64,000 bases of DNA from the IMG/VR virus record IMGVR_UViG_3300021400_000252. One strand, given 5' to 3'. Source of the DNA: a virus. Lineage: Duplodnaviria; Caudoviricetes. Made by a program: the position numbers and the translations under genes. This document shows positions 5,914-63,720 of the stretch, piece by piece (within the stretch, counting starts at the first letter, position 1; every line of letters starts with the position of its first letter). The notes beneath the pieces were generated by a model, which saw only the letters and a list, made by a program, of their open reading frames with translations, did no database searches and was not told the DNA's origin.

Positions 5914-7176
5914 ATGGTAAATTTTGTTTACGAAGTTAGAAATATAAACGATCCAATCTTAGGTGAAACACCTAGATTTGCTTCAGACAAGGAAGCATTT
6001 GAATTAGCAAAAGAGTTTGATGGTGCAGAAGTTTATGCTTTATGTTATGATGAAGATTGGAATTTAGTAAGTGAGGATAAAATTACTGAGGCTGATATGG
6101 AATTACCTGATGGATGTGACTCATGTTCAGGTGATAATCCAGCTAATTACGATGATGAAGGAAATTTTAGACTTCCTGAAACTGACGATGATTTAGATGA
6201 AGAGTTTAAAGAATATTTCTTTCCAAAAGAATTTTATGATAGATTTAAATGATTTAGAGGATCTAAAGCAGATTGCTTAAATTTTAGAAATGAATATTTA
6301 AATGACAGTGATTGGATTGAAATTGTAAAAGATGGAAACACAGAGAATAATGAAATTCCTGAATACACTATTAATTTTACTAAGGACCATCTTATTAAAC
6401 CTGAGCTTTGGGATACTTTAGAACATGAAACTATTGGTGATGAGTTAAAAGCAGCAAGAGCTAAAGATGAAACTTTAGTAAGTGATGAGGCTGCTGAAGA
6501 ACACCCTGTTGATGAATGTGTTAAAGCACCTGAAAAGAAAGAATTAGTAAAAGAATCTCTACCTCCATTTAAAACAGGAGCTCCACTAGATTTTCAACAA
6601 TTAGACTACGATTATGCTAATGATGATGTTTATTATAAAGACAAGAAAGTTATCGCTTTTCAAGAGCCACATGAACTTGCTGTAGAAATTTATAATAGCT
6701 ATATCAATGAAGAAGGTTTAACAGAACAAGACTTAATTAATTATCCAATGTGTGAAAATGGAATATTAACTAAAGAAGCTTGGACAAAATTCTTAGATAC
6801 TGCAGATCCAACTCAATATTGGTTAGGCTGGGCAGATTTAGTACGTGAGGCTGATTTAACAGAAACAGATTTAATTTATGAAGGTGAGGAACCTTCTGTT
6901 AACGAATCATGTGAGTCTTGTAAAGAGTGCGGAAGTTGTGAAACACAAGAAGATGATGATACATTATTTAATGAAAACTTTACTCCAGAAGAAGATGAAG
7001 AATTTAAAAATCTTAGTAAGACTTTAGGATTTAAAGACTTTAAAGATGTATTAGATTTCAGTAAAGACCATGGAAGTGTTTTCGACAGAGAGCTTTTACA
7101 GTCAATGCGTGAGGAAGCAGAAAAGCTTGCTTCAAATTCAGTTGATTTCGAAACTCAATTTAATAATAAGAACTAA
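5914..7176 (+). CDS. acidic late protein, possible internal head protein (420 aa, TGA at 6250 read through)
   Basis: AGGAG RBS with ATG 5914; frame open across TGA 6250 into the track ORF 6748-7176; VKES/VNES/FNEN motifs. Confidence 0.8.
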
Positions 7177-7296
7177 AATAATTTAGTTGCCTACGGACCT
7201 ATCATAGGTCCTTTTATTTTTTATTTAAAAAGTATTTACAAAGTTTCAGAAATGTTGTATAATAAATGTAGAAAAAGAAATAAGGAGATAAAGTAT

Positions 7297-7500
7297 ATGT
7301 ATAAAGTAAATGTTGAGTCAAGTAATATTAATAGTATTGGTTATGAAAATGGAGAACTAGTTGTTGATTTTAAAGGTGGTTCATCTTATAAGTATTTAAA
7401 TGTTCCACAAGAAATGTTTATCAACATGATTAACTCTGAAAGCAAAGGTAAATTCTTAGCAGAGAACTTAAAGAATAAATATGAATTTATAAAACTTTAA
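7297..7500 (+). CDS. KTSC domain protein
   Basis: VESSNINSIGY...FKGGSSYKYLNVP...SKGKF matches the KTSC consensus. Confidence 0.9.
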   Translation: MYKVNVESSNINSIGYENGELVVDFKGGSSYKYLNVPQEMFINMINSESKGKFLAENLKNKYEFIKL

Positions 7501-7578
7501 AAATTTTTCTAAAAGGTATTTACAAAACATCAATTTAATGTTATAATAATAGTGAAGAAAGATAAAGAGGTGTTATGT

Positions 7579-7839
7579 ATGATGAACTTTGATGGTAATA
7601 AAGAAGAAAGACAGAAGTGGTGGAACGTAGTAGTTCTAATGCCAGATAATTCTATAAGATTAAGTTTCGCACGTGGTGAGGACTACGAATCAGCAAAGCG
7701 TTGGTTCGATAGAGCAACTTACACAGTTGAAAGAAGTGACTACAAAGAAATACTAGAGTTCAGTAAAGATTGTAGTTCTACTTATAATGAATTTGTAGAA
7801 AAAGAAAATAAATTAAAAGATAAATATAATATCAAATAA
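7579..7839 (+). CDS. hypothetical early protein
   Basis: GAGGTG RBS; follows promoter at 7519. Confidence 0.75.
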   Translation: MMNFDGNKEERQKWWNVVVLMPDNSIRLSFARGEDYESAKRWFDRATYTVERSDYKEILEFSKDCSSTYNEFVEKENKLKDKYNIK

Positions 7840-7853
7840 GAGGTGAAGATAAA

Positions 7854-8156
7854 ATGAAGTTTGGAGAAATAAAAGGAATTTTAAATAATATAGAAAAGTT
7901 AGATACAACAAAACCTGATTGTACGCAGGAGTTTTCAATCTCATTAGCTGGAAGTCAAGATTATGTGTTAGCAAATCAGATTACAGGTACTGATTTAGAT
8001 GAACTAAGTGATTTTGAAGTAGTAGATATTGAGTCAGGAGATTTTGGATTAGTGGTAACTTTTAAGTATGTACCAACAATCATTCCTGCTTTCGGAGCTT
8101 TAGCAAAGCGCTATAGAGCACCATTACAATCTAAAACTTACTATCATTTAAATTAG
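7854..8156 (+). CDS. hypothetical protein
   Basis: GAGGTG RBS. Confidence 0.75.
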   Translation: MKFGEIKGILNNIEKLDTTKPDCTQEFSISLAGSQDYVLANQITGTDLDELSDFEVVDIESGDFGLVVTFKYVPTIIPAFGALAKRYRAPLQSKTYYHLN

Positions 8157-8198
8157 TAAATAATAAACCAGACTCTAAAAGAAAGGAGATGAAAAGTT

Positions 8199-8414
8199 AT
8201 GAAATTAGAAATTGCTTTTAGAAATGGAAACATGGAGAAGAAACAATTTAAAGATGAAAACGAAGCTAGAGATTACTTAAAATCTATTGGCACCGAAAGT
8301 ATTATCTATTTCGATGTTCTAGACGATAATGATAATTTCAACTTTGACTCTCCATTGCTTAACGAGTCCTACCCAAGACCGGCAGAAGATATAATTGAAT
8401 GACAAATAAACTAG
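8199..8414 (+). CDS. hypothetical protein (ends 8402 if TGA is a stop, 8414 if read through)
   Basis: AGGAG RBS; TGA 8400 followed four codons later by TAG inside the terminator stem. Confidence 0.7.
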
Positions 8415-8473
8415 GTTAATTACCTAGTTTTTTAATTGCTAAATTGGATAAACTGTTTAAAGGAGTTTTGATT

Positions 8474-8623
8474 ATGAAACTGTTTAAAATATTTTTCGCT
8501 GATGGAAATACTGTTCACAGATTTGCAGAAGATAAAGATACTTTAGTGAGTGAACTAAATGAAGAATTTCCAAACAGAGAAATTGTAATGATTACAGTTG
8601 TTGACGAAAAAGAAGAGTTTTAA
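8474..8623 (+). CDS. small hypothetical protein (49 aa), not in ORF track
   Basis: AGGAG RBS, MKLFKIFFADG...EEF; downstream of TGCTAAATT 8437. Confidence 0.7.
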   Translation: MKLFKIFFADGNTVHRFAEDKDTLVSELNEEFPNREIVMITVVDEKEEF

Positions 8624-8656
8624 TTGTATAATAACATATAGGAGATTTAGTCTAAT

Positions 8657-8893
8657 ATGAAGCTTCATGAACTTGTAGATAAGTTAACATCAGGACAATT
8701 TAATATCTATCATGAATATAAAGCTTACTTTAAAGGATCTATCATTAAGAAAGATTATGAAGATAAACCTAGATTTGACTTTGAATTAGAACCATATTCA
8801 GATTTCAGTGATTTAGATGTTGTGAGTTTTAACTTAGCTGTATCTTCAGACGTTTATGACCAAACTCCAGTTCTAGATATTGTTGTTAAGTAA
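8657..8893 (+). CDS. hypothetical protein
   Basis: AGGAG RBS; TTGTATAAT upstream. Confidence 0.75.
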   Translation: MKLHELVDKLTSGQFNIYHEYKAYFKGSIIKKDYEDKPRFDFELEPYSDFSDLDVVSFNLAVSSDVYDQTPVLDIVVK

Positions 8894-8906
8894 AGGAGAC
8901 TAAAAC

Positions 8907-9104
8907 ATGGAACAAGATATTAATGATTTATTAAAGACTTTAATTGTTGAGAAGGATCTAGAGATTAGAAACCTAAACATCACAAATTCAAATTTGGCTA
9001 ATCAAAATGAAGAGTTAAGGAAGAGAGTTCAAGAACTTCAAGACAGATTATTAAAGACTCAAACAACACCTGCACCTGTTGAAGAGATGCAAAGCAAGAA
9101 GTAG
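8907..9104 (+). CDS. coiled-coil hypothetical protein
   Basis: AGGAG RBS; heptad pattern. Confidence 0.75.
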   Translation: MEQDINDLLKTLIVEKDLEIRNLNITNSNLANQNEELRKRVQELQDRLLKTQTTPAPVEEMQSKK

Positions 9105-9115
9105 GAGGACTAAGT

Positions 9116-9409
9116 ATGGGAATAGTATTCGATAACTCTGCACAAAGAGTTCAGATTAAAGATCTATTGAATGATGAAGAGAACAGATTTATTTTAAATA
9201 GATTACAAGCAGGACGTTATAGAACTCCAGATGGATATGATGCACCTTATAGATTAAGTGATGAAGAATTAGTTAAATTACAAGATGAATATATTTATAT
9301 TCAAACAGATGGTGATTGTTGGTATGCTCGTTTCGAAAAACCTACAAGCGAAATCAGAGAGTTGTTAGGACTTCCAATCCAATCAGATAACCCATTTGAT
9401 ATGTTTTAA
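9116..9409 (+). CDS. hypothetical protein
   Basis: GGAGG RBS. Confidence 0.75.
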   Translation: MGIVFDNSAQRVQIKDLLNDEENRFILNRLQAGRYRTPDGYDAPYRLSDEELVKLQDEYIYIQTDGDCWYARFEKPTSEIRELLGLPIQSDNPFDMF

Positions 9410-9453
9410 GATAAAGAGACTAAACAGTCTCTTTTTTATTTTTATAACAGACT

Positions 9454-9520
9454 TCTCGGAGTCTATGTTTTAGGCAGATCGTTATAATTGAACTAAGAGA
9501 ACTTAGTTACCTACAAACCT
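9454..9520. repeat. intergenic A/B repeat cassette copy 3
   Basis: TCTCGGAGTCTATGTTT 9454-9470; AACTAAGAGAACTTAGTTACCTACAAACCT from 9491. Confidence 0.8.
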
Positions 9521-9615
9521 AACCTGAAAATATTTTAAAAAAGTTTTAAAAAGTATTTACATCCGCCATAAAACGTGGTATAATGTAATTGTAAAAAATA
9601 AAGGAGGAACAGAAT

Positions 9616-10053
9616 ATGAATAAATATTCACAATTCAATGCAGAACAAGTTTTAAAGGAAGTTAACAGATTACTTAATTGTTATTCAGGACCTTACCTAA
9701 TTGAGTATGTATGTAAGGAGTTAAGTATATTTGACTGGTGGCCTAGAACGTTATCTAAGTCAAGATTAAATCAAATGAAATCATTCTTAACACAAGCAAT
9801 CAAGAGAGGTTATAAAGGTTATGTATGTTTCAAGGTAGGCGATACTGGATGTGCAAATGGTATGTGGGCACATAAGGAAGAAAGTACTAATGGTTATTCT
9901 CCAGATGGTGATTGCTTATATCACTCATTCACTCCAGAATATACTTACTGGTCAGTTAATCAAAATGGAACTTGGTACCCTACTAATGAACAAAAGTTTG
10001 ACTCAGTTAAAACTTTAAAACAACTAGATGCATTGTATGAAAGTTTAAATTAA
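9616..10053 (+). CDS. hypothetical early protein
   Basis: GGAGG RBS; promoter at 9556. Confidence 0.8.
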   Translation: MNKYSQFNAEQVLKEVNRLLNCYSGPYLIEYVCKELSIFDWWPRTLSKSRLNQMKSFLTQAIKRGYKGYVCFKVGDTGCANGMWAHKEESTNGYSPDGDCLYHSFTPEYTYWSVNQNGTWYPTNEQKFDSVKTLKQLDALYESLN

Positions 10054-10100
10054 GAGGTGGAATATTCCACTTCTTTTTTTTATTCACTCAGGAGTTAGGA

Positions 10101-10166
10101 TTTCGGAGTCTATGTTTTGATTGTGAATTATAATTAAACTAAAAATAATTAGTCACCTACAAACCT
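10101..10166. repeat. intergenic A/B repeat cassette copy 4
   Basis: TTTCGGAGTCTATGTTTT 10101-10118; AACTAAAAATAATTAGTCACCTACAAACCT from 10137. Confidence 0.8.
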
Positions 10167-10261
10167 TGCCTGGATAAAAATAAAAATATTTTATAAAAAG
10201 TATTTACATATTTATTAAAACATGATATAATAATAATGTAGAAAGATAGAGGTGTATACTT

Positions 10262-10411
10262 ATGAAACCTAAAAAGAAAAGAAAGTTAAGAAATCCTATT
10301 CACTTTGCTATCATAACAAGTGGTACACATATGAACTTGACTAAGACAAAGCGAGAGAAAAAGGAACAAGAAGATAAGAAACAAAAGATGAAAGGTTGGA
10401 GTGAAGAATAA
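10262..10411 (+). CDS. small basic peptide (49 aa), not in ORF track
   Basis: GAGGTG RBS; MKPKKKRKLRNPIHF...; TAATG overlap with next gene. Confidence 0.7.
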   Translation: MKPKKKRKLRNPIHFAIITSGTHMNLTKTKREKKEQEDKKQKMKGWSEE

Positions 10412-10884
10412 TGAGTGAGATGGAAAGAATTAAAGCAGTCAGATTAAGATTACCTAAAGAAATTAGTTCTATGAAATTTAGAAATGAGAAGTATGATTGT
10501 GATGATGATATACAAGAATATCTAGATAGACCTGAGTTTAGTGATATCGTAGATTGGAAGAAGCCTGGAAAGTTCATGTCTAGTTATGGTGCAAGCTTAA
10601 TTAAGGTTAATGGAGACTGGCAATCTCTTCATGAATATTACATAGATTTTCTTTTAGATAGAGGATGGGATGAAGCAGGTGAATTTACTAAGTCTAGAGA
10701 ATTAACAGATAATGAATTAGTAAAATATATACCTAAGTTTAAAGCATTCTTCGAAGCCGTCAAATTGCCTTGTCCAGAATTAAGCAAGGAAACAATACGA
10801 GTTGTTGAGTATTGTTATTACAATGGAAGCGACGCACCAGTATGCTTCGATACAACAACAGATCCATTCTATGATGAAGTATAA
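10411..10884 (+). CDS. hypothetical protein
   Basis: Coupled ORF. Confidence 0.8.
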   Translation: MSEMERIKAVRLRLPKEISSMKFRNEKYDCDDDIQEYLDRPEFSDIVDWKKPGKFMSSYGASLIKVNGDWQSLHEYYIDFLLDRGWDEAGEFTKSRELTDNELVKYIPKFKAFFEAVKLPCPELSKETIRVVEYCYYNGSDAPVCFDTTTDPFYDEV

Positions 10885-10949
10885 AATAATTTAAAAAAAT
10901 ATAAAAAAGATATTTACATTTCAATTAATTTGGTGTATAATATAAATGT

Positions 10950-12150
10950 ATCAAGATGAAGCAAGCTTATAAATGTCCACTTCTATGTAGGAAGTCATGA
11001 GCCGAGGTAGTTGAGGAAGTATATAAGTTAGGGCTTGAAACTATCGTAAGAGACTATTCGCATACCGGTCAATACGTACAACTACTCTTATTAGTGGAGT
11101 TAATTCGAATATACAGCCATCTTGATCGTCTCTAAGAATATATAATATTAAATGTGAGAATAAACTATCGGTCCAGCATCTCCGAAAGATTCGGCCGAGT
11201 TTGATATTATATATTGCTAGAGGCGAAAACTATTCTGTGCGCCCTAAGCCGCGGAATAGAATAAACCTCTGGCGGTGGTGAGATTACTAAGAATATCTTA
11301 GTCAGTCTCTAAGAGTATATGAGCATATGCAGTTAAGTCTGCCCAACAAGTTCGTATACTGCTAGAGGCCGAGGACATAGTCGAGTAGGTGGCACGATTT
11401 AGATTTTTTCCTGCCGAGTGGAAAGATAAGTATCAGCTAGCGAAGGCCAAGCGAAAAGTCAGACAAGCGACCTGCTGATGCGATATTACCATATGAAATT
11501 TTAAACTAAATAATATTATAGCGGGTATGACGTAAAAGGTGTAGCACGCACAAGCAAGTATTTATACATGAGATTAATTCTCTAAGGCTAAAGGTTATGT
11601 AATTCCGGAATAAGTAATCAAAGCCTGTACCTTACAATTGTGGTGACAGTAGTCGTAATAAAGTTGCATCGACGCAACAAGCTAGAGTAATCTAGTGGGG
11701 ATGGCCCGACCGAGTCGTACCGGGTATAATGTTATTTAGTAATAGTTAATATCAAGACGAACAACATGTTAGATGCGCAGCTATTTGTTGAGAGGTTCGT
11801 GCTGGAGTGACAGTCTTCGGATAAGGATGAAGAGCAGAATATCCCATCGCTAGATGAATGCCGACATAAGAAATACTGATGGGGTCGGATAGAATCAACC
11901 AAAGATATTAACTTATTAATTAACTAATATTGCACTGAGCCCAGCCGTTAAACAGAAAGCAGGACCGCTGAAAGTAGCAGAACGGTGGTTAGTATAGGAG
12001 GCGCCAAAGCTAAGACCGATTCCACAAGCACACGACTCTGATAGCTACAGAGAGAGCTGGACCTTGTGCAATGTTAGTTAGTATTGAAACATCAATCATT
12101 CTTATACCCTCCTTTCTGAAAAAGCTTTAGATTAATTTCTAAAGTTTTTT
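10950..12150 (+). ncRNA. polycistronic cassette of structured non-coding RNA domains
   Basis: Promoter at 10913-10941 not followed by an RBS/ORF; GC visibly above background; successive closing helices (10950/11126, 11127/11225, 11305/11369, 11505/11740, 11744/11913, 11921/12080); terminator 12119-12150. Confidence 0.8.
12119..12150 (+). terminator. terminator closing the ncRNA cassette (possibly bidirectional)
   Basis: AAAAAGCTTTAGA-ttaatt-TCTAAAGTTTTTT. Confidence 0.75.
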
Positions 12151-12219
12151 CGTTTATATATTTACAAATCAATTGTTTTATGGTATAATATATATGAAGA
12201 TAGAAAGAGGTGTATAAGT

Positions 12220-12834
12220 ATGAAAGATAAATTAACATATGTTATGAGTTTTGTAGGTAAGAGAATTGTATTTGATGTAGGTTGGTTTGATTATTATACT
12301 GGAGTAATTAAATCAGTTGAAGTGACAGGAAACCAATATAAGTATGAAGTTAAATTAGTAGTAGATAATATTTTAAATTATGACAGCACGCATCGTGATG
12401 GTCACAGGCCAGATTTTAGAACTACTGATACAGTATTATTAGATAACTATTTAAACTATCATCGTCAACGCTGGGGCATGTGGGCATTAGCCGATTCTAA
12501 AGCAGGTAAAGATTTAATGTATAGAATTGAAAGAACATGGGATAAGAGAACTAAAGATAAATATCCAGATCCTTACGATCCAAACAGTTTAACAGAACCT
12601 AATAAAATGTTTTATGATATGTTAGTGGAAAGAAAGGAAGCAGGCCTACCAACCTATGTTAGAACTAAGTATCGCGATGATAGCGAAGACTATAGATTAG
12701 AAAAGGTTGAAGCTAAAGATTATAAAGTAGATGTATTTAGAGGTAAGGCTTATGTAGTATTTGCAACCATTGCCTATGCTCATAGAGTTAAAGCTACTAA
12801 CTTTAATAAGAAATATTTCTTTGAGGAAATGTAA
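12220..12834 (+). CDS. hypothetical early protein
   Basis: GAGGTG RBS; promoter at 12161. Confidence 0.8.
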   Translation: MKDKLTYVMSFVGKRIVFDVGWFDYYTGVIKSVEVTGNQYKYEVKLVVDNILNYDSTHRDGHRPDFRTTDTVLLDNYLNYHRQRWGMWALADSKAGKDLMYRIERTWDKRTKDKYPDPYDPNSLTEPNKMFYDMLVERKEAGLPTYVRTKYRDDSEDYRLEKVEAKDYKVDVFRGKAYVVFATIAYAHRVKATNFNKKYFFEEM

Positions 12835-12903
12835 AATAACTATTTACATTCCTTTTCTTTTATGATATAATATAATTGAAAATAAATAAGGAGGACTATA
12901 ATT

Positions 12904-13227
12904 ATGGAAACTAATATTAATAATTATACTTTTGTAGAAGTAGAGGAAAAGATTTGTGAATTTTGTGGTAGTATAAATAGTTATGATAAAACTAATACTT
13001 GTAGAAATTGTGGTGCTAATCAATATAGAATTAATAAGGTTAGAGTAAAAACATTTAAGCCAACTTCAAAGCCTATTATTAAATCTAATCCAGTGCCAAA
13101 GACTAGCTCAAAAAAAGATGAAGATGCAGATACTACTAGAAAAATTGTAGGAGGCGCAATAGCTGCTATTGTTATAGTTTTATTTATATATATACCAATT
13201 ATTACTCTTATAAGTATATATGGATAA
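12904..13227 (+). CDS. zinc-ribbon protein with C-terminal transmembrane anchor
   Basis: CEFCG...CRNCGA plus hydrophobic C-terminus. Confidence 0.8.
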   Translation: METNINNYTFVEVEEKICEFCGSINSYDKTNTCRNCGANQYRINKVRVKTFKPTSKPIIKSNPVPKTSSKKDEDADTTRKIVGGAIAAIVIVLFIYIPIITLISIYG

Positions 13228-13308
13228 ATAAAAAAGTTAGAGGAAAAGTATTTACATTTCCTCTTTTTTGTGGTATAATATAATTGTAATAAGATAGAGG
13301 TGATTAGA

Positions 13309-13542
13309 ATGAGTAGATGGTTATCTATCGCTCCAACATGGTGGGAGTTATTAAGAAGTATTTTAAAACAAGGATATGTATATATTAAATATAATGGTGA
13401 GATTCATCAATGCAAAGTAGAGAATAAAGGTTGGGAAGATTATCCTAGACTTGAATTAGCTTGGCATTATACTTATCCTATTAAACTAATTGAAAGAGAT
13501 TATAAAATTACTTGGTCTAAGAATAGAGAAGACTTAGAATAA
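13309..13542 (+). CDS. hypothetical protein (DYxxTW C-terminal motif)
   Basis: GAGGTG RBS; ends DYKITWSKNREDLE. Confidence 0.75.
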   Translation: MSRWLSIAPTWWELLRSILKQGYVYIKYNGEIHQCKVENKGWEDYPRLELAWHYTYPIKLIERDYKITWSKNREDLE

Positions 13543-13559
13543 GAAGGAGGACTAATTAT

Positions 13560-13871
13560 ATGTTTATAAATACTTATGTAGAGAAGGATGTATATAGTGC
13601 TGGTTCAGGCTGGGAAAGAAAGGTGTGCTTAACAGGTAATAAGATTAATTCTAATATTATTACTGAAGTTCAATCTTTAGATAAAGATAAGGTAAATCAA
13701 TATGAATATAATAATTATGTAAAGGTAATAACTAATCAAAAGAAAGGTAAATCTTCATTTGGTTTTATTGGAGCTTTATTTGTATTAGTGTTTCCAATGT
13801 GGCATTCATATTCATATAAAGAGTATATTGTTTCTAAACAGGATTTAGATAAGGTTATTAATAATAACTAA
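13560..13871 (+). CDS. hypothetical protein with hydrophobic segment
   Basis: GGAGG RBS. Confidence 0.75.
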   Translation: MFINTYVEKDVYSAGSGWERKVCLTGNKINSNIITEVQSLDKDKVNQYEYNNYVKVITNQKKGKSSFGFIGALFVLVFPMWHSYSYKEYIVSKQDLDKVINNN

Positions 13872-13911
13872 TATTATTGTTGTATAAATAATTATAAGAG
13901 GTGAGTAATAT

Positions 13912-14250
13912 ATGGCTGATAAAAGACCGCTTGAAAAGATAGTAACAATAGCAGCAGGACCTATAAGTTTAGTTCCTTTTGAAGATAAAAATAATGTACA
14001 GTATTATAAAATAATAACTCACGCTCATAATGGTAAGGTATTAAAAAGAAAGTATGCTGTATTAGCAACTATCCGTAGAACAACTAGGAACTGTACTATT
14101 ATATTTCAAGGCGGCTATGCTATAACTCCAGAAGATTGTCATGCTATACATATTATGTTCATGCATATCTCTAATTGGGACTATTGGTATAACTTCCAAA
14201 GAAACGGATGGTATGGAACTTGCCTACCTAAACAAGAGGAGAGTGAATAG
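13912..14250 (+). CDS. hypothetical protein
   Basis: GAGGTG RBS. Confidence 0.75.
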   Translation: MADKRPLEKIVTIAAGPISLVPFEDKNNVQYYKIITHAHNGKVLKRKYAVLATIRRTTRNCTIIFQGGYAITPEDCHAIHIMFMHISNWDYWYNFQRNGWYGTCLPKQEESE

Positions 14251-14251
14251 T

Positions 14252-14437
14252 ATGACATTAATAGATTATTTAAATAAAGAAGCTGAGCTTAAATTAAAGC
14301 TACAAATGATAGATGATATATCTCGTAAGTATAATAAAGCAGATACTGAAAGCATGATTATTCATGAAGGCTTAAATGCTTTATTTAAAGAAACAGAAAA
14401 GGAACTAAAAAAGATAGAAAAGAAATTAGGTGTTTAA
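14252..14437 (+). CDS. small helical hypothetical protein
   Basis: ATG 14252 after GGAG. Confidence 0.7.
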   Translation: MTLIDYLNKEAELKLKLQMIDDISRKYNKADTESMIIHEGLNALFKETEKELKKIEKKLGV

Positions 14438-14438
14438 T

Positions 14439-14783
14439 ATGTTAAAGATAACTCATATAAAAAGACATGGTCTACAAGGAGAACATCAAACAAACCTTAA
14501 GACAGGTCGAGTTAACTATATAGGTCTATGTTCTTTTAGTCATTTAGATAGAATAAATTTTGTAAGAGATGGCTTGCACTATTCTATACAGATGGATGAT
14601 ATAGATGGAGATTACCAAGTAGCAGTGAGATGTAAGGAAGATAAGTATTTCTTTAAGCATCTTGGCTATGGCACTCAAACATTTATAGATTTATTATTTG
14701 GTTGGGATTGGCAGACTAAAGGAGCTACATATCAAACATTCCCTACTGATAAATTAGAAGCAGTTATATTTGGAGGTAAGTAA
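14439..14783 (+). CDS. hypothetical protein
   Basis: Coupled ORF. Confidence 0.75.
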   Translation: MLKITHIKRHGLQGEHQTNLKTGRVNYIGLCSFSHLDRINFVRDGLHYSIQMDDIDGDYQVAVRCKEDKYFFKHLGYGTQTFIDLLFGWDWQTKGATYQTFPTDKLEAVIFGGK

Positions 14784-14784
14784 T

Positions 14785-15117
14785 ATGCAAGATTATAATG
14801 AAGCATTAGAAACATTAAAAGATATGTTAATTGGTAATGGTGTAAATGATAATATCAACGATTATGTTGATAACTTGATTTTGCCTATCAAGCAAGCACT
14901 TAACGAAAAGGAAAGTAAACTTCTTATAGCAAAGAAATATGGATTCTTTGATGGATATAGTATGTGGAGAACAGATGAATTTATAGTTGACTATGATAGC
15001 GTAAGAAATGAATTTTGTTTAAGAAGTATTACTAATGGATATACACTTGGTAGAACAAGATTTTATGAGAGTGATTATAAGAAGACCTGGTGGCTTAAGG
15101 AAGACATGAGCAAATAA
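14785..15117 (+). CDS. hypothetical protein (DYxxTW C-terminal motif)
   Basis: GGAGG RBS; ends DYKKTWWLKEDMSK. Confidence 0.75.
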   Translation: MQDYNEALETLKDMLIGNGVNDNINDYVDNLILPIKQALNEKESKLLIAKKYGFFDGYSMWRTDEFIVDYDSVRNEFCLRSITNGYTLGRTRFYESDYKKTWWLKEDMSK

Positions 15118-15194
15118 TATTATAATAAAGTATTTACATTTCAAAATAAATATGGTATAATATACATGTAAGATAAATAAGGAGGTAGTGGATT

Positions 15195-15458
15195 ATGAAG
15201 GATATTAAGAATAGAATTGGCAGATTCAGATTAACCGAAATACATGAAGATACATATACTTATTCTATGGCTGACGAAGATGATAATCCATTTGTACTAA
15301 CTCAGTTTATGATAGATCTAGATGATAATACTTATACTCCTATTGAAAGACAAGAGATTACTTTCTATCCTAAGAGTGATGTAGAGATTAGTAATCTTCC
15401 TTTTACAGAAGAAGAGTTAGCTTACTTAAATGAATTAGGATTAAAGGAGAGAGAATAA
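15195..15458 (+). CDS. acidic hypothetical protein
   Basis: GGAGG RBS; promoter at 15133. Confidence 0.75.
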   Translation: MKDIKNRIGRFRLTEIHEDTYTYSMADEDDNPFVLTQFMIDLDDNTYTPIERQEITFYPKSDVEISNLPFTEEELAYLNELGLKERE

Positions 15459-15459
15459 C

Positions 15460-15663
15460 ATGAAGCAATATTATGTAGTATATGCAAGTAAGGATACTGG
15501 TTATTATCAGACTGCTTATTGGGTAGTGTGCGTTACAGAAGATGAATCTGTAGCAAAGGACTTATGTAAGAAGTTTGATTATGATTATAGTACTGAAACT
15601 GTAGGAGAAGAAAGAACTACTCCTGATGATGTAAGAAGAAGAGAACCACATGAGTTCAGATAA
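15460..15663 (+). CDS. hypothetical protein
   Basis: RBS; coupled ORF. Confidence 0.7.
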   Translation: MKQYYVVYASKDTGYYQTAYWVVCVTEDESVAKDLCKKFDYDYSTETVGEERTTPDDVRRREPHEFR

Positions 15664-15679
15664 TAAAGGAGAATAGTAT

Positions 15680-15958
15680 ATGAAGTGGATAGTTAAACGT
15701 TTTAGATTTTATTGTGTAGGTAAAGGTGATCCTGCTGGTGACTCAAAGGTAATAGGTTATAGTGATAAGACAGAGCAGGAATTGTTCGAGGTATTGGAAA
15801 AGGAATATCCTAACCTACCCATAAGAAAAGAAGTAGTTACTACTAGTAAGAGTGGTTGGGAAAGCTTTGATGGTTTTGATAAGAATGGAAAGAAAGACAA
15901 TAACTTCTTATATGAAGACTGTATATACTTTACCGCAAATACTTTAAAAGAGTTTTAA
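15680..15958 (+). CDS. hypothetical protein
   Basis: AGGAG RBS. Confidence 0.75.
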   Translation: MKWIVKRFRFYCVGKGDPAGDSKVIGYSDKTEQELFEVLEKEYPNLPIRKEVVTTSKSGWESFDGFDKNGKKDNNFLYEDCIYFTANTLKEF

Positions 15959-16049
15959 TGAGACAGAATAATATCTGTCTTTTTTATTATATGCTAAATT
16001 AACTGTAAACTTTATTGTTAATAAATGAACTAAATAGGAGATTAAATAT

Positions 16050-17045: not shown

Positions 17046-17163
17046 ATTATAAATAATTATTAAGAGCTTTTAATTAAGCTCTTTTTTTATTTTCTTTAAA
17101 AAATATATTTACATTCTAATGGTTTTAATGTATAATATAAATATAAAGAAGAGGTGAAAGAAG

Positions 17164-45046: not shown

Positions 45047-45047
45047 C

Positions 45048-50294: not shown

Positions 50295-50295
50295 A

Positions 50296-51138: not shown

Positions 51139-51205
51139 GTCAGATAATGACTTATTTTTATTTGCTAAATTATTTGACTAAAAAATCTGTCTTATAAGGA
51201 GATAA

Positions 51206-51856: not shown

Positions 51857-51870
51857 ACTTTATAAAAATA

Positions 51871-51895
51871 AAAAAGCTAGTAATCTAGCTTTTTT
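51871..51895. terminator. bidirectional terminator
   Basis: AAAAAGCTAG-taat-CTAGCTTTTT between convergent genes. Confidence 0.8.
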
Positions 51896-51899
51896 ATTT

Positions 51900-52538: not shown

Positions 52539-52540
52539 TA

Positions 52541-53890: not shown

Positions 53891-53908
53891 TATAGTATCT
53901 CCTTTATT

Positions 53909-53946
53909 ATAGATTTATTGTATAATATATTATACAATAAATCTAT
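53909..53946. repeat. perfect 38-bp palindrome containing TTGTATAAT on both strands
   Basis: ATAGATTTATTGTATAATA|TATTATACAATAAATCTAT. Confidence 0.9.
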
Positions 53947-54018
53947 TTAATAATAGAAATAGAATAAGGAAGAATAAGGAGGCTAAAATAAAAAAACTAA
54001 TTTCTTAGTCTTTTTTAT

Positions 54019-54342
54019 TTATTCAAAATATTCACATGACAATCTAAATGATCTAGCTTCACAACCAGTTTTTTCTTTTATATATTTTTTAACAAGTAAT
54101 TCAGTACTTACATTTGTTAAATCATCAACAGAACGTACATCTATAGCCATTAATAATTCATCAGGCAATATCCTGGTTGGTCCAGGTTTGCGTTTTTCTT
54201 CGACCTTGTTATTTCTTCTATACAACCAATCCGCCGCTATTTTATAAGCATTAGAACGACCAGTGGAATCAGTAAAAGTATCTGGAATTTTTATTTTTTC
54301 TTCTTCTTTTATATAATCGATTTTTGAAATTTTAATTATCAT
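54019..54342 (-). CDS. hypothetical protein
   Basis: GAGAGG RBS and TTGTATATT on the minus strand. Confidence 0.75.
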   Translation of the reverse strand: MIIKISKIDYIKEEEKIKIPDTFTDSTGRSNAYKIAADWLYRRNNKVEEKRKPGPTRILPDELLMAIDVRSVDDLTNVSTELLVKKYIKEKTGCEARSFRLSCEYFE

Positions 54343-54474
54343 AAAAATTTAACCTCTCAGTCATATTAAATATACAATGTTTTTTATTATATAATGTTAT
54401 AATTCATTAATAAAATACTTGTAAATAATATTGTATAATAAATTATATATAATAAATAATTAAAGGAAGATTAC

Positions 54475-55812
54475 ATGTCAAAGTTAACCTTTGTTCTACC
54501 AACATGCGAACCGGATACAATTAAAAAATATTTAGTTAAATCATTAAAATACTTATTAAAAATTAAAGATAAAATATCTTTTGGGATTTGTTTTCAACCT
54601 CCATATACTGAACAACAAATTCAAGAGATTATAACTTGGTTTGAACCTTTTGATTTTAAATATATTTTTAAAGATTATAAAATTGAAAAACCTAAAGTAC
54701 CATTAATGAAAATGAGGAATGATTGTGCTATGCTCTATCCAGACTCAGATTATTATGCATTATTAGATGATGACATGGAATTTGAAGAAGGAATAGATAA
54801 ATATTATGATGATGTTATAAAATCTATGGATGAAGATCAAAAATTATGTGTTTGTTCTTTTTCTAAGAGGCCTGTAGCTTTAGAAAATTGTTTTTATACT
54901 AATGCTGGGTTAATTTATAGAGGTGGAAAATATTATGGTTATGAAGGTTTAGTACCACATAGACTACCTAATGAATGTTATACTTTAAAACCTTATGATG
55001 GAGAAGACTTAACAGAATTATTTGGTGGTCATCAAGATGAATTATGTGCAATGATTAGAATTGCTCAAGGTGGTTTAACTAAAAGTTATATAAGTGTTCC
55101 AACAAGACATTGAGAAAATAGAAAAGTTTTTGGATATATTCAACATGGTTGGAAAGGTGCTGAACCAATTGATGGTTCTGTCTGTAGTTTTATTAGAAAA
55201 TATTTTTGTAGCTTATATGATCTAGCTCATCGTAATCCAATTTTTGATGAAAAATTAAAACTAATGTTATCTCATCAAAGACGTGTCTTATTAGTAGAAC
55301 AATTAGCCCATCCAATGAAATTTACTTTAAATTTAAATAAATATACGAAAGTTTATTTCACTAATCACTCGACACCAAGAGATGAAAGATCAGTAAATAG
55401 TAATTCAATTAAGTATTCATTTAAAGTAACTAAAGCAGAAGATTATAAAGAATTTACAGTTTTACAATTACATTCTTTAGATAATGGACATGTTCCAGTA
55501 ATTAGAATTTCTATTATAGATAATAGTATTTATATTACTTATAAAGATAATTGTAATGTAAATCATTATACTAAATTGGATAACTTTGAATTAAATCAAG
55601 ATTATACGATTAGTATTAATATTACATCTGATTCTATTGAAATAAATGATGGTAAATGGAAATACGAAAGATGGTTTAATAAACATGAATTTAGATACGG
55701 AATTTATCCTCAGACTGATTTCGGTAACTATGAATTAGTTGTTCATAAAATTGAAATAGATAAAGTCGTTAATAACTGGGTAATAGATAAATATAGAAAT
55801 GTTAGATTATAA
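54475..55812 (+). CDS. GT-A glycosyltransferase fused to PL7-like lyase/lectin domain (445 aa, TGA at 55111 read through)
   Basis: YYALLDDD; C-terminal PRDE..., VLQLH, FRYGIYPQ. Confidence 0.7.
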
Positions 55813-55877
55813 GACCTGAATTTAATATTAAAAGAAAATACCTAGATTCTATATAAAATTTTAATAAGGAGATACTT

Positions 55878-57038
55878 GTGAAAACGAAATTTAGATTCCA
55901 TGTACTTGGAGTACCACATACTAAAACTAATTTAAATTATACTCAGTGTGCATATACTCAGAAAATATATAAATTTTGTAAAATGATGACTGAACGAGGT
56001 CATGAAGTTATCCATTATGGAGTTGAAGGAAGTAATCCGATTTGTACTGAAAATGTAATAGTAGTTTCAGATGAAATTTATAAAAAAGTATATGGTAATT
56101 ATGATTATAAGTCTAGTTTTTTTAAATATAACGTTAATGATGAATGTTATCAAACTTTTTATAAAAATGCTATTATTGAAATTAATAAACGAAAGAAACC
56201 TCATGATTTTTTATTACCATTTTGGGGTGCTGGAGTTAGACCAGTCTGTGATGCATTTCCAGATCTAATTGTTGTAGAACCTGGTATCGGATACGGTGAA
56301 GGACTTTGGGCTAAATATAAAATTTTTGAATCTTATGCTATTTATCATGCTTATCGCACATTAAATTCAGTAGCATATTGCCATCAAAATCAATATGAGG
56401 TCGTAATTCCAAACTATTTTGATTTAAATGATTTTGAAACAAATTTTGATAAAGAATCTAGATTAAATAATAAAGATAGATATTTCTTATTTGTTGGACG
56501 CGTCTATGATGGAAAAGGTGTAAATATTGCTATTCAAGTTTGTCAAGTATTAGGTATTAAATTAAAAATTGCTGGACAACTTAGTGATAAGTATAAAAAT
56601 TATAAATGGCCAGATAATATAGAATATGTAGGAAGTGTTAATACAAAACAACGAAGTGACTTAATGAAGAATGCTATTGCTTCATTTTTACCTTCTCAAT
56701 ATGTTGAACCATTTGGAGGCGTACAAATTGAAAATCTCCTTTGTGGTACTCCAACAATAACTAGTGATTGGGGTGGATTTGCAGAGAATAATATTAACGG
56801 ATTGACTGGTTATAGGTGTAGAACATTTGACGATTATTTAAATGCAGCGTTAAATTGTCTAGATGGAAAAATTGATTATAAAGAATGTAGAAAGTTCGGA
56901 GAAAATTTTAGTCTTGAAAACGTTGCATTAAAATATGAAAAGTATTTTAATGATGTATTAACTTTATATACTAATAGGGATGGTTGGTATACTATTTCAA
57001 ATGAAACTCGTAAGAGAATTAATCAAATTAAAAATTAA
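55878..57038 (+). CDS. GT4 (GT-B) glycosyltransferase
   Basis: FLFVGR...KGV, EPFGGVQIE..LCGTP. Confidence 0.9.
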   Translation: MKTKFRFHVLGVPHTKTNLNYTQCAYTQKIYKFCKMMTERGHEVIHYGVEGSNPICTENVIVVSDEIYKKVYGNYDYKSSFFKYNVNDECYQTFYKNAIIEINKRKKPHDFLLPFWGAGVRPVCDAFPDLIVVEPGIGYGEGLWAKYKIFESYAIYHAYRTLNSVAYCHQNQYEVVIPNYFDLNDFETNFDKESRLNNKDRYFLFVGRVYDGKGVNIAIQVCQVLGIKLKIAGQLSDKYKNYKWPDNIEYVGSVNTKQRSDLMKNAIASFLPSQYVEPFGGVQIENLLCGTPTITSDWGGFAENNINGLTGYRCRTFDDYLNAALNCLDGKIDYKECRKFGENFSLENVALKYEKYFNDVLTLYTNRDGWYTISNETRKRINQIKN

Positions 57039-57063
57039 AATACTTTATTAATTGGAGCTTAAT

Positions 57064-58056
57064 ATGGAAAATATAAAAAATATTAAAGCAATTATAGATC
57101 TAAAAGGAAAATGTCAATCAGTTATTAAGTGGAGATTAACTGATGCTTGCAATTATAGATGTTCATATTGTTTACGATATGCTTGGAGTAAAAAGCCACA
57201 AGATTTAAAATATTTACAAGAAGATATTAAGTTAATAAATGAGGCAGCTCCTGAAGTTGCTAGAATAATAAATGAAATGCCTGGTAAAGTTAAATTAGAT
57301 TTAATCGGTGGAGAGGTCTCTTTATTAGATTTAACTTCAATATTAACTACTTTATTTAAAATTTGTGGAAATAAATTATTTAGAATAAATATTACAACTA
57401 ATATGTCTAATTCGGCTGAATATTATACTAGTCTATGTAATCTTGTGGATAGCTATGGAGCTGAATTGGGAGTAACTTGTAGTTTTCATTCTGAATTTAC
57501 TACATTAGACAAATTTATTTCAAAAATAAAACAAATAAAACATCCAACTGCACAAAAAGAAATCCGTGCTGAATTAGTCTCTCATTTATATAATCAAGAG
57601 TTAGTAAGACAATTTATAGATATTTGTGAAAAAGAAGGTATAACATATTTTGTCGAAAGAGACTTAAGTGCAGATCCAGAGATTAAATCTCAATTATTAA
57701 TTGGTTCTAGTAAGAAAAAATTAGATCGATATAAAGTTATTTCTGATACAAATGAAGAAAAATTATATAAAACAAGAAATGAAGTAATTAGTGGTAATTT
57801 AAGTGATTATAGACATTATTTAGAATTAAATGGATTGTATTGTACAAGAGATTATGATTACGTCTATATCGAAAAAGATGAACATATTGGTAGAATAGGT
57901 GATTCTGACTGTAAACAACGTGAAAATATCTTCTATTTTCACCCACTGGCCGAACCAAAATTATGTATAAAACCTGGTTGTACTTTATGTGGACATATGA
58001 GTGTGAGTAAAGTAAAAGAATTATTAATGTTAGATAAAGAAGGTCAAGAAAAGTAA
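57064..58056 (+). CDS. radical SAM protein
   Basis: CNYRCSYC, LIGGEV, TTN, SFH; C-terminal Cys cluster. Confidence 0.88.
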   Translation: MENIKNIKAIIDLKGKCQSVIKWRLTDACNYRCSYCLRYAWSKKPQDLKYLQEDIKLINEAAPEVARIINEMPGKVKLDLIGGEVSLLDLTSILTTLFKICGNKLFRINITTNMSNSAEYYTSLCNLVDSYGAELGVTCSFHSEFTTLDKFISKIKQIKHPTAQKEIRAELVSHLYNQELVRQFIDICEKEGITYFVERDLSADPEIKSQLLIGSSKKKLDRYKVISDTNEEKLYKTRNEVISGNLSDYRHYLELNGLYCTRDYDYVYIEKDEHIGRIGDSDCKQRENIFYFHPLAEPKLCIKPGCTLCGHMSVSKVKELLMLDKEGQEK

Positions 58057-58127
58057 TCTTGACCTTCTTTTATTAATATTGTATAATATATTATAATATA
58101 TTATAGTAATAAATTTAGGAGTTAAAT

Positions 58128-58946
58128 ATGTTAGATAAACGTATTGTCGTTGTTGGGTTTGGAGTTGTAGGTAAACTTGAATATGATATATTATTTGAAA
58201 GATATACTCCGGATATTTTAGATTTAAATGGGAGTATGTTATTTTCTACTGGAAGTTCAGAATTATTAAAATTTGAAGATGCTTTAGAAAAAATAAAAGA
58301 TGTAGAATATGATTTAGCAATAGTTGCAGTTCCAACACCTTATGATAAAGAAAGTGGAGTTTTAGATTGTCATTTAGTTTATGATGCTGTAAAAGAAGTA
58401 AATGCTAAAATTTATTTAATTAAATCCACAGTTAATGTTGGTTATTGTGATTATTTAGTTGCACAAACAGGTAAACATATAATTCATAGTCCAGAACATG
58501 CCGGAGCAACACAACATTGTAATAATTTTAATTATGATTTTACAATTTTAGGTGGAGATACAGAGGATTGCCAAGTTGTTCAAGAAATATATCAAGAAAT
58601 ATTCGATGCGAGACATATATTTAAGTATATAACTAGAAGAGAAGCTGAAACAGCTAAACTTGTAGAGAATTGTTATTTACCAACAGTTGTAAGTTTTTGA
58701 ACAAGTATTTGAGAAAGTTGTAATAAATTAGGTATTTGTTTTGAAAATGTAAGAGAAGCTGTTTTATTGGATCCAAGAATACCGAGACCACACTCCGCAG
58801 TATATCCAAGCCACCCATTCTGAGATAGTCATTGTTTTAATAAAGATGAACCAGCATTTGCAAATCAAACTGGAAATGAATTATTAAAAAATGTATATCA
58901 ATTCAATGATCAAATGAAAGATAAATATAAAAATAATAAAAAATAA
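58128..58946 (+). CDS. UDP-glucose/GDP-mannose dehydrogenase family protein, short form (272 aa, three TGAs read through)
   Basis: GFGVVG, AVPTP, IKSTV, SPE, AKLVEN, DPRI, SHCFNKD; the catalytic Cys lies after the TGAs. Confidence 0.88.
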
Positions 58947-60442: not shown

Positions 60443-60451
60443 GAGACGTAT

Positions 60452-60931
60452 ATGGATGAATTAAAAATAAAAACTATTGTTGGTGTCTGCCCACCAGATG
60501 CACCAATTATTCCAAGTGATGAATATGTTAGATATATTTCTCGTGGAGCCACAGTTGTCTTTGAATTCGATTTAGATCAAAAAGCTTATACTTTTAATGA
60601 TATTGAACAACTTTCATTTTTATTTAAACAGTATAATAAATTATTAAAATATGATTTATATACTGAAGGAAAAGTTTTAAATCCATTATTTTGTTTTGAC
60701 TATGATGATTATAATGAAGTAATAATCATTAAATTAAGATTACCAGCTGAAGAAACAGTTAAATTTAAGAAAACAACTAAAGAAAATTTAATTCCGTGCG
60801 AAGTAATGATTCACTTAAATTCAAATGAAGATTATAATCAAGATGAAACAACAATTTTAGAGAATTTACCTCCTCTAAATGTAACCGATACTCTTTATGG
60901 AAAGTTCTTAGAACGAAAAGAGGAGAACTAA
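60452..60931 (+). CDS. BppU-like baseplate protein
   Basis: RGAT...L..EET..F pattern. Confidence 0.65.
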   Translation: MDELKIKTIVGVCPPDAPIIPSDEYVRYISRGATVVFEFDLDQKAYTFNDIEQLSFLFKQYNKLLKYDLYTEGKVLNPLFCFDYDDYNEVIIIKLRLPAEETVKFKKTTKENLIPCEVMIHLNSNEDYNQDETTILENLPPLNVTDTLYGKFLERKEEN

Positions 60932-61291
60932 ATGGAAAATGCAAAACCAATAACAATTATACGTGGTGATTCATTATCATTTTTATATACTATTTATGAT
61001 CAACAATGTAGTATTTGTGCTGAACCATATACACTAACAGATGATGACATTTTATATTTCGGAGTAATGTTACCACATGGAAGATTTGAAGACGCTTTAA
61101 TTAAAAAGAGCTTTACAAAAGAAGATTTAGTTAATGATAAATATATTAGAATTAAATTAACTAGTGATGAAACTGCTCAAATTGTTCCTGGAGTATATTA
61201 TTATGAAGTTAAATTAGCAAAAAATCTAGGAATGGAAAATGAAGAAGTAATTACAACAACTAGAAAAACTAAGTTTATAATTTTAAATTAA
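60932..61291 (+). CDS. BppU-like baseplate protein
   Basis: IIRGDS...LTSDET...PGVYYYEV. Confidence 0.75.
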   Translation: MENAKPITIIRGDSLSFLYTIYDQQCSICAEPYTLTDDDILYFGVMLPHGRFEDALIKKSFTKEDLVNDKYIRIKLTSDETAQIVPGVYYYEVKLAKNLGMENEEVITTTRKTKFIILN

Positions 61292-61386
61292 AAAGTGACA
61301 TTTTTGTCACTTTATTTTTTTAGATAAACTATCCATTTGCTAAATTAGATGATTTATTGAAATACTTATAATGGAGGTTTTTTACA

Positions 61387-63720
61387 ATGGCTCAAACTAA
61401 AAATAAAACCAATTATGTTAGAAATCTTAAAGGTTTAAGTACTGATACTAAACCTATTTATGATATACGTGGAAATGGTTCGACTTTTACAGAAATTGAT
61501 ACAGGAAATATTTATATATATAATGCTAATACTAAAACTTGGGTTCTAGATAAAGAAAATCCAAAATTACCTGAAGAACAAACATATAAAGGTATTAAGG
61601 AAATTGTAAAAGATCCAAATTATCCAACCGAAGACCATCCATTAACAGATAGATATATTATCAAATATACTAACGGTACTGAATATGACTTTTTCGTTAA
61701 TAACGGTGAAAAAGGTGATATTGGTGAACCTGGTAAAGATATGGATAAAGTTGTATTGCGATACAGCGAAAACGGTAAGGCTGACGGTCCATGAGCTGAT
61801 CAAAAGGTAGTTCAATGGAAACATAATTCATTACCAGATACTGACGAAAATTGGAATGATTTATTCCCAATTGCAACAATCTCTCAAGGATATAGTCCAC
61901 AAATCAATCCAACAACAGGACGTTGGATGATTCAAGAAGGTGGTCAAATAGTTGATTCAGATGTTTCAGCTTATCCACATGATTTAGAAATTAGAAAATC
62001 TGAAAATGAATTACAATATAGAGTAGTCGATCATGATGGAATCGCTATTACAGATTGGGTAACTTTTGCAAATACTCAAGATATTAAAGGTGATAGAGGT
62101 GTCGGTATTGTATCTGTAGAAAAAACAGCAACTGACGGATTAGTTGATACTTATACTATTACTTATTCTGATGAACATACTTCAACATTTAGTATAGTAA
62201 ATGGTGCACAAGGTGAACAAGGTCCTCAAGGTCAAAAAGGTGAAGCAGGTAATGGTATTTATGCTATAGATGTAGATTCTTATGATGAAGAAACAAGAAC
62301 TACAACATATAGAATAGTTTATACAAATCAAGATTATACAACATTTACTATTAAAGATGGTGAACCTGGTCCTAAAGGTGATAAAGGAGAAATTGGTCCT
62401 AAAACCATTTTCAGAGTTGAAGGCAATTATTTACAATACAAAGCTGAAAACGCATCTACGTGGGTTAATTTGATATCTATAGATCAAATTAAAGGTCCTA
62501 AAGGCGAAACAGGGGCGGATGGTAAAGACGGTATAAATGGTATTTCTGGTGTTGGAATCGTCAACATCGAAAAAATTAAGACTGTAGGTAAAATAGATAC
62601 TTATCAAATAAATTATACTGATGGTAGCTCAAATACATTTGATGTAGCTAATGGTGCAGATGGAACTAGTTTAGTTGGTATTAGCTGGTCTGAAGATAAA
62701 AAAACATTAATATTTGAATTATCAAATGAAGAAGAAATTAGAGTCGATTTTACAGATATTTCTAAAAATTTAATTAATGTAGATGATGGAGAAATTGGAC
62801 AAGTCTTAACTATTGTTGATGATGGTGATGGAAATAAAGTTATTGGATTCACAAATAAAACCGCTTATACTGGTACAAATGGAGTTACAGTAAATAATCA
62901 AGAGGTTAGTGCCGACTTAGACTATCTAAATGAACATCTTAAATATAATGGACAAGGTCCTATTAGAACTACTGTTGGTGGATTAACTTATGGTACTGAT
63001 ATTAATAATTGGACATTTAAAAAGTTATTAGATAAGATGTTATATCCTTATCAACCACCTCAAGCATTTAGCATTAAACTTCAACAAAACGTTTATGAGA
63101 TTGGTGAAACTCCTTCTCAAACACTTTCATCAATCCAATTTTCAAAAAGAGATGGAACTGATCCAATTAATAAATTGAAAGTTAAATATCGTAAAACACT
63201 TAATGACGCTTACACATATATTTATGGTGCTAAAAATGATGAAGATGAATATATTGATGATTTTGGTCCATACGCTAATTCTATAACAATTGAACCAATA
63301 ACATTTGAACAAAGACGTGTACCTGGAAATTATGATTGGTTCTATTCAACAGTATCTGATGGAACAAATCAGCTTTCTGCTAGTGTAAATGTTAATGCAT
63401 TTACTGTTTATGACTATTATAAAATAGTTGATACTGGTGAAGAATTCACTCCAACTAGTTTAATAAGAATTAGTACTGATGGTGAGACATCTATTAATAT
63501 TGAAGACGGAAAAACAATTTATTATTTATCAAAAACAAATGGTACTTTAAAAACATATGATGAATTTGCTGGTCAATTCTTAGAATTAGAAGATGATGGA
63601 CAATTTTATCACAAAGTTGGTACTAGTGAAATTACCCTTCAAAGTGGATTAACTAACCAAACTTATTATGTACATAAATTCACTCCATTAGTTGGAGATT
63701 CATTTAAATTTAAGATTTAA
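61387..63720 (+). CDS. collagen-repeat tail fibre protein (777 aa, TGA at 61792 read through)
   Basis: TGCTAAATT 61338, GGAGG RBS; Gly-X-Y runs alternating with GI..I...DTY.I.Y repeats; the two track ORFs share one frame. Confidence 0.85.

Follow-up and report, generated by a model that had tools for sequence, protein, structure and literature searches.

Phages that read the stop codon TGA as tryptophan (Trp, W) have been described from gut metagenomes. The Jade and Agate gut phages recode TGA to W with a module comprising a tRNA with anticodon UCA, a tryptophanyl-tRNA synthetase (TrpRS) and release factor 1 (RF1) (Borges et al., 10.1101/2021.08.26.457843; later Nat Microbiol 2022), and mass spectrometry has shown that Trp is inserted at UGA by phage TrpRS:tRNA(UCA) pairs carrying G73 or A73 (PMC12636597). 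Other large phages, the crAss-like and Lak phages, recode TAG to Gln (code 15; PMC9523058, PMC7886860). Here we analyzed 64,000 nucleotides (nt) of phage DNA (Duplodnaviria; Caudoviricetes; IMG/VR record IMGVR_UViG_3300021400_000252; hereafter, the window, meaning the whole stretch), comparing its translation by table 11 with translation in which TGA is a sense codon. We conclude that the window phage is a further case of the TGA-to-Trp recoding already published for large gut phages whose hosts are standard-code Firmicutes. We assign a probability of about 80% to the reading that TGA is decoded as Trp, likely by a phage-supplied tRNA-Trp (UCA) in a low-GC (guanine plus cytosine) host from the Bacillota with the standard code. 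Published work already covers the phenomenon, its machinery and Trp insertion, and no new question is opened; the additions made by the window are modest, namely very sparse use of the recoded codon, its presence in auxiliary glycan genes and a PhoH gene, and a clean split of its distribution by promoter motif.

The likeness to the Jade and Agate phages rests on shared features, not on terminase phylogeny. Like them, the window represents a large phage from animal or human gut metagenomes with in-frame TGA at Trp positions and TGA apparently used little or never as a stop, with few recoded codons in early or replication genes, a lineage in which tRNA(UCA) occurs either alone or together with TrpRS, and a host predicted to be a standard-code member of the Firmicutes. 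It differs in that its TGAs lie in PhoH, in a glycan-biosynthesis island and in proteins without known function, rather than in genes for structure or lysis, as the window contains neither kind; in its very sparse use of TGA; and in the RF1 component, treated below with the other points against our reading. With the AP1 and HF2 pairs of PMC12636597 the lineage shares the same two discriminator variants, found in the related contigs G004 (G73) and G003 (A73, beside TrpRS), although here the pair is known from the sequences of relatives. The code 15 phages resemble the window phage in reassigning a stop codon mainly in later genes and in having a phage suppressor tRNA, but they differ in the codon, the amino acid and their Bacteroidota hosts. 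In Mycoplasma and Spiroplasma and their phages (code 4), UGA likewise means Trp, but there the host reads UGA natively, whereas here TGG prevails and early genes avoid TGA.

The genes that contain TGA in frame, including the only candidate for a TGA stop, are as follows.

5884-7176, plus strand: 430-amino-acid (aa) acidic protein; sense TGA 6250-6252, codon 123
8199-8414, plus strand: small gene, the only candidate for a TGA stop; TGA 8400-8402, with TAG four codons on inside a terminator stem
24877-25560, plus strand: 227-aa protein; TGA 24910-24912, codon 12
28888-29118, plus strand: 76-aa protein with the end ...YY-TGA-TGA-EEKFKEL; TGAs 29089-29094
35185-36045, plus strand: PhoH-like ATPase; TGA 35518-35520, codon 112, inside the Walker A motif (G-T-x-G-T-G-K-T)
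37724-38158, plus strand: DUF7831 protein; TGA 37757-37759, codon 12
48453-48971, plus strand: 172-aa protein; TGA 48885-48887, codon 145, placed on the basis of a 27-codon in-frame extension only
51206-51856, plus strand: 216-aa protein; TGAs 51509-51511 and 51581-51583; promoter-like motif TGCTAAATT upstream at 51163
51900-52538, minus strand: 212-aa protein, paralogue of 49001-49645; TGA 52434-52436, codon 35
52541-53890, minus strand: asparagine-synthase-like (AsnB-like, PP-loop) protein; TGAs 53855-53857, codon 12, and 53198-53200, codon 231
54475-55812, plus strand: 445-aa protein, glycosyltransferase-like in its N-terminal part and alginate-lyase-like in its C-terminal part; TGA 55111-55113, codon 213
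58128-58946, plus strand: short Ugd-like dehydrogenase, 272 aa; TGAs at 58698, 58710 and 58821, codons 191, 195 and 232
61387-63720, plus strand: 777-aa protein; TGA 61792-61794, codon 136; TGCTAAATT upstream at 61338

The original prediction, made from the window's letters, listed 15 in-frame TGAs whose frames continue, and all 15 positions are TGA codons in the frame and on the strand given, with homology and Pfam domains extending past them. Under table 11 the plus strand holds 90 open reading frames (ORFs) of at least 80 aa, which end in TAA (70), TAG (13) or TGA (7), and all seven that end in TGA run on in the same frame into the next ORF. The median number of open codons is 174 past TGA and 4-7.5 past TAA or TAG (Mann–Whitney P = 0.001), a comparison that is noisy because adjacent genes sometimes share a frame by chance. 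Four Pfam domains cross TGA residues: PhoH (residues 84-273, E = 7e-34) crosses residue 112; UDPG_MGDP_dh, the UDP-glucose dehydrogenase central domain (residues 171-253), crosses residues 191, 195 and 232; DUF7831 (residues 8-130) crosses residue 12; and Asn_synthase (residues 158-319) crosses residue 231. Contigs assembled independently from other samples (L085, L095, L001-L003, L007, L010-L014 and L256-L261) carry identical TGAs, so assembly errors, which the original prediction had named as a possible undoing, do not account for them.

Two probable sense TGAs, at 29089 and 29092, can be added to the list, giving 17 in total. The TGATGA at 29089-29094 is probably sense: a relative of the 76-aa protein (L007, 59% identical) has TGG-TGA followed by in-frame EETKF, a similar tail, and its codon 10 is also TGA in frame. 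Convincing gene ends are all TAA or TAG. Of the two candidate TGA stops named in the original prediction, the one that stays ambiguous is 8400, where the TGA is conserved across six independent assemblies with a differing short tail (QIN or QMN); TGA is essentially unused as a terminator in the window, and this one small gene could still end there. The ORF list made under code 4 holds further N-terminal TGAs, at 10396, 17119, 17710, 18483 and 47468, which are probable artefacts of extending ORFs upstream. Direct support for this explanation exists in two of the five cases, as 17119 falls within the promoter spanning 17108-17136 and the ATG at 18591 has a probable ribosome-binding site (RBS) ahead of it. 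A separate observation from the same stretch is a 70-codon gene at 18359-18571 (plus strand) that overlaps the preceding gene by a TAATG stop-start and is easily overlooked if the neighbouring ORF is extended under code 4.

The identity of the amino acid was assessed by comparing codons with the DNA of relatives at 14 informative sites. Trp occurs in at least one relative at 12 of the 14, and the codon was confirmed as TGG at 11 (35518, 58698, 58710, 58821, 61792, 29089, 53200, 52436, 51509, 6250 and 37757); at the twelfth, 55111, W was seen in protein predictions only. Several of the TGG-bearing relatives were verified as table-11 translations (L004-L006, L086 and L094). In the homologous columns Trp is most frequent, followed by Phe and Tyr, with Cys at one site and neither Gly nor a stop at any. 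Ranking of all residues over the 14 sites by BLOSUM62 placed W first (78.9), ahead of Y (29.2) and F (22.7), with every other residue negative (G -34.7, C -21.5), and for practical purposes these scores exclude Gly (code 25), Cys and selenocysteine. In the reverse direction, TGG in the window stands opposite TGA in relatives 27 times, plus once in a 94%-identical strain, so TGA and TGG replace each other both ways. The support for TGA as a sense codon for Trp is about as good as sequence comparison permits; the alignment of homologues that had been proposed as a check gave Trp-enriched columns, in line with the predicted meaning.

The three cases that had been called decisive bear this out individually. 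At the Walker A site of PhoH, 48 relatives carry TTY (36), TGG (6) or TGA (6). The minus-strand 212-aa protein is colinear with its uninterrupted paralogue at 49001-49645 (43% identical over 205 aa, spanning the TGA), and two orthologues (L087 and L088) have TGG at the site. The columns of the Ugd-like protein in 34 homologues read C17/W12/F4, W22/Y7/F3 and W25/Y8 at its three TGAs, the last being the site before the catalytic Cys, where a table-11 TGG is included. Loci 88% identical to this gene (L001-L003) have TGA/TGG/TGG where the window has TGA/TGA/TGA, and table-11 loci with a 42%-identical homologue (L004-L006) have TGT/TTT/TGG.

The remaining genes add evidence of varying weight. At 6250, W is found in three homologues 82-91% identical to the 430-aa protein, one of which (P0047/L094) translates by table 11, so that its codon at this column is TGG. 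The 61792 site of the 777-aa protein is TGG in L001 and L002 (56% identical). Codon 231 of the AsnB-like protein is TGG in three relatives, the table-11 locus L086 among them; at its codon 12, two relatives share the TGA and one has TTA. Relatives of the 216-aa protein have TGG or GAA at 51509 and TTT at 51581, and standard-code phage homologues of the DUF7831 protein have TAY (4) or TGG (1) at 37757. The TGA at 55111 sits in a conserved H-x-E-N-R motif whose column in 33 homologues is mixed (Y11, V4, W3, H3, others), and the alignment goes on both sides of it. In the 227-aa protein, 50 open codons follow the TGA at 24910 with no ATG, GTG or TTG until 25063; an RBS-like GGAG and the motif TGCTAAATT at 24832 lie upstream, and the TGA is identical in an independent contig (L085). 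No divergent homologue was located for this protein, the 172-aa protein had no homologue in IMG/VR or metagenome scans, and IMG/VR scans with the 777-aa, AsnB-like and 430-aa proteins returned no relatives.

Candidate decoding machinery was found in related phages. Related IMG/VR contigs with PhoH 60-80% identical to that of the window carry arrays of 27-39 tRNAs, and two of them, G003 and G004 (PhoH 65-67% identical), retain the same Walker A TGA. Both encode a tRNA of 76 nt whose anticodon, UCA, sits in a CU-UCA-AA loop and which has an A1-U72 pair; its discriminator is G73 in G004 and A73 in G003. In G003, a contig of 166 kb and 93% completeness, 80 nt separate the tRNA(UCA) from a full-length TrpRS downstream of it (TIGR00233, 321 bits against a cut-off of 177) whose best solved relatives are bacterial TrpRS (E = 6e-91). 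The pair is located as follows.

L175:1350-2478 (IMGVR_UViG_3300021399_000106, 38184-39315), related phage: tRNA(UCA, A73) and complete TrpRS, separated by an 80-nt gap

This pair is separate from the main tRNA array, which has more than 30 members, and, judged by its sequence, is a predicted code-change pair of the Jade/HF2 type. Features that suggest Trp identity for the UCA tRNAs are the A1-U72 pair, the anticodon loop, the neighbouring TrpRS and, in one tRNA, G73. Two side observations come from the same set of contigs: a transfer-messenger RNA (tmRNA) within the tRNA array of a related phage (G005; L077:177-539), and a tRNA-like gene whose anticodon, according to ARAGORN, has 2 nt (G002; L079:1249-1322).

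The host is suggested by the closest bacterial genes to the phage NrdD, which are 65-68% identical and belong to metagenome-assembled genomes (MAGs) of Bacillota with 26-30% GC from sheep, goat and deer rumen and human gut. In 35 low-GC MAG loci (L176-L210), every conserved Trp position of NrdD carries TGG, and TGA terminates some ORFs. These genes hint at a standard-code Bacillota host of matching composition, the phage genome having 28% GC. We propose that during infection of such a host the phage would provide an opal-suppressor tRNA-Trp (anticodon UCA), possibly together with its own TrpRS, and that TGA-containing genes would be completed only once the suppressor tRNA is present.

The recoded codon is sparse and unevenly placed. 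The window has about 17 sense TGAs and about 236 TGGs, so that TGA makes up about 7% of Trp codons, with TGG ahead by about 14 to 1, and TGA occurs mostly once per gene. Its share of Trp codons rises from 1.5% (1-17 kb) through 4.2% (17-44 kb) to 16% (44-64 kb; P = 7e-4). Density is highest in a glycan-gene island (44-64 kb) that encodes two family 2 glycosyltransferases (GT2), a methyltransferase, a Stealth protein, a GT1, a radical SAM (S-adenosylmethionine) protein, and the Ugd-like and AsnB-like proteins. Genes were classed by three promoter-like motifs.

948-17136, plus strand: early region with 16 host-type promoters TTTACA-N17-TATAAT (motif matches)
5866, 8437, 15992, 24832, 25680, 35116, 43924, 51163, 58984, 59031, 59974 and 61338, plus strand: copies of the motif TGCTAAATT
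53916-53939 (both strands), 54429, 58077, 20088, 31018, 32352 and 43042: TG-extended -10 motif TATTGTATAAT, with no clear -35

Exact TTTACA-N17-TATAAT was found 17 times in the window (0.5 expected), always on the plus strand, with the seventeenth copy at 38623, and many copies carry TG ahead of the -10; these copies probably mark an early region transcribed by the host polymerase. The motif TGCTAAATT occurs 12 times (2.4 expected), in every case on the plus strand and intergenic, 30-70 nt ahead of an RBS and often directly after a terminator, and is a candidate phage-specific (middle or late) promoter; TGA is present in 5 of the 11 first genes behind it. The TATTGTATAAT motif heads the AsnB-like, 54475 and Ugd-like TGA genes. 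The 34 genes behind host-type early promoters contain 60 TGG and no TGA, compared with 171 TGG and 17 TGA in genes behind the other two motifs (Fisher P = 0.015), and 5884, the sole TGA gene within the early region, is preceded by a TGCTAAATT copy of its own at 5866. The recoded codon thus appears depleted in early genes, a split consistent with the published proposal that recoding keeps early and later expression apart.

Several points weigh against our reading as a whole or in part. No tRNA gene and no Rfam match were found within the 64-kb window, and we infer decoding by a phage tRNA(UCA) from the relatives in which such a tRNA is observed. A search of IMG/VR for an exact 36-mer gave no match, look-ups of exact proteins led only to contigs of 13-42 kb, and an NrdD with 100% identity sits on a 28-kb contig. 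In a nearest-neighbour comparison with other phage tRNAs, similarity alone does not place the UCA tRNAs with tRNA-Trp(CCA), although the comparison is uninformative because phage tRNAs are divergent. The RF1 of the Jade and Agate module (Pfam RF-1) was not found in five related contigs, a weak negative given that four of them are less than 65% complete. Two of the 17 sites (24910 and 48885) are without an informative homologue. The NrdD similarity is only a hint at the host, and the gene classes behind the temporal part of the proposal are defined by sequence motifs, so a standard code in the host and the use of uneven TGA placement as a timing device should both be taken as inferred.

We consider it improbable that the host itself uses code 4, as a Mycoplasma- or Spiroplasma-like member of the Bacillota would, with the phage following it and needing no recoding machinery of its own. 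The genome's GC content of only 28% would suit such a host, and some of the MAGs with the closest NrdD are small, very AT-rich and labelled Bacilli, Erysipelotrichaceae or 'uncultured Mycoplasma sp.'. AT-rich code-4 bacteria, however, favour TGA for Trp, and no such predominance is seen here, where TGA accounts for few Trp codons and is absent from the 34 early genes. All 35 MAGs, the Mycoplasma-labelled one included, use TGG at the conserved NrdD positions noted above and TGA ends some of their ORFs, while related phages have their own tRNA(UCA) and one of them also a TrpRS. The sparse use of TGA and its absence from early genes thus indicate partial recoding of the phage type rather than Mycoplasma-style code 4; where the original prediction appealed to known genetic code 4, the codon meaning Trp holds and the usage pattern does not.

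Still less likely, and in our judgement very improbable, is that TGA remains mainly a stop that a near-cognate tRNA-Trp reads through inefficiently, giving mostly truncated product with a small full-length fraction and no genuine reassignment. In Bacillota, tRNA-Trp is known to read through UGA at a low level, and the rarity of TGA, its usual single occurrence per gene and the lack of a tRNA within the window would all be compatible with it. Yet TGAs fall in essential motifs, namely the PhoH Walker A and, with three of them, the Ugd-like core, where a protein cut short would be of no use; readthrough also leaves unexplained that no convincing gene stops at TGA, and relatives have a dedicated tRNA(UCA), in one case with TrpRS beside it.

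We give almost no credence to the remaining alternatives, namely that TGA encodes Gly (as in code 25), Cys or selenocysteine, or that the TGAs are pseudogene lesions or assembly errors, for although code 25 phages exist and Cys is found in 17 distant homologues at 58698, close relatives have TGG at that site, no column contains Gly, the residue scores given above favour W, and the TGAs recur in independent assemblies with homology resuming downstream. Code 25 (TGA = Gly in Gracilibacteria, Absconditabacteria and their phages) was rejected with Gly at 0 of 14 sites. Selenocysteine was rejected because the columns are W/F/Y, with Cys at one site only, where close relatives carry TGG; the UCA tRNAs of relatives, at 76 nt with a short variable region, are unlike tRNA-Sec, and an Rfam scan of the window gave no family of selenocysteine insertion sequence (SECIS) elements.

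Returning to Trp decoding by a phage tRNA, we note that TGG and TGA flip between strains more than 90% identical, and that the recoding is sparse and apparently in flux. We tentatively suggest, as an idea we hold with somewhat less than even confidence, that it may act as a translational timer reaching beyond virion and lysis genes, in which case the enzymes of the glycan island would be finished only when the phage tRNA-Trp (UCA) appears. For annotation, the consequence is that table 11 breaks at least 12 genes of this phage and that gene calling needs TGA = W; public gene calls on relatives show the resulting fragments, including a 190-aa Ugd piece, 165-aa and 142-aa pieces and a 408-aa AsnB piece.

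The glycan island is variable. L001 (88% identical) is without about 10 kb corresponding to 43970-53890, and its Ugd-like gene stands before the GT1 and radical SAM genes, whereas in the window (43970-58946) it stands after them. Within the island, the two TATTGTATAAT motifs at 53916/53939 form a divergent palindromic pair. In the early region, a plus-strand stretch of about 1.2 kb (10945-12150) matches no Rfam family, and IMG/VR lacks a 19-mer taken from it. It contains no ORF longer than 59 aa, has a GC content of 38-43% against 28% for the genome, and lies between an early promoter and a terminator with an RNA fold z-score of -5.3, making it a candidate for a large early non-coding RNA.

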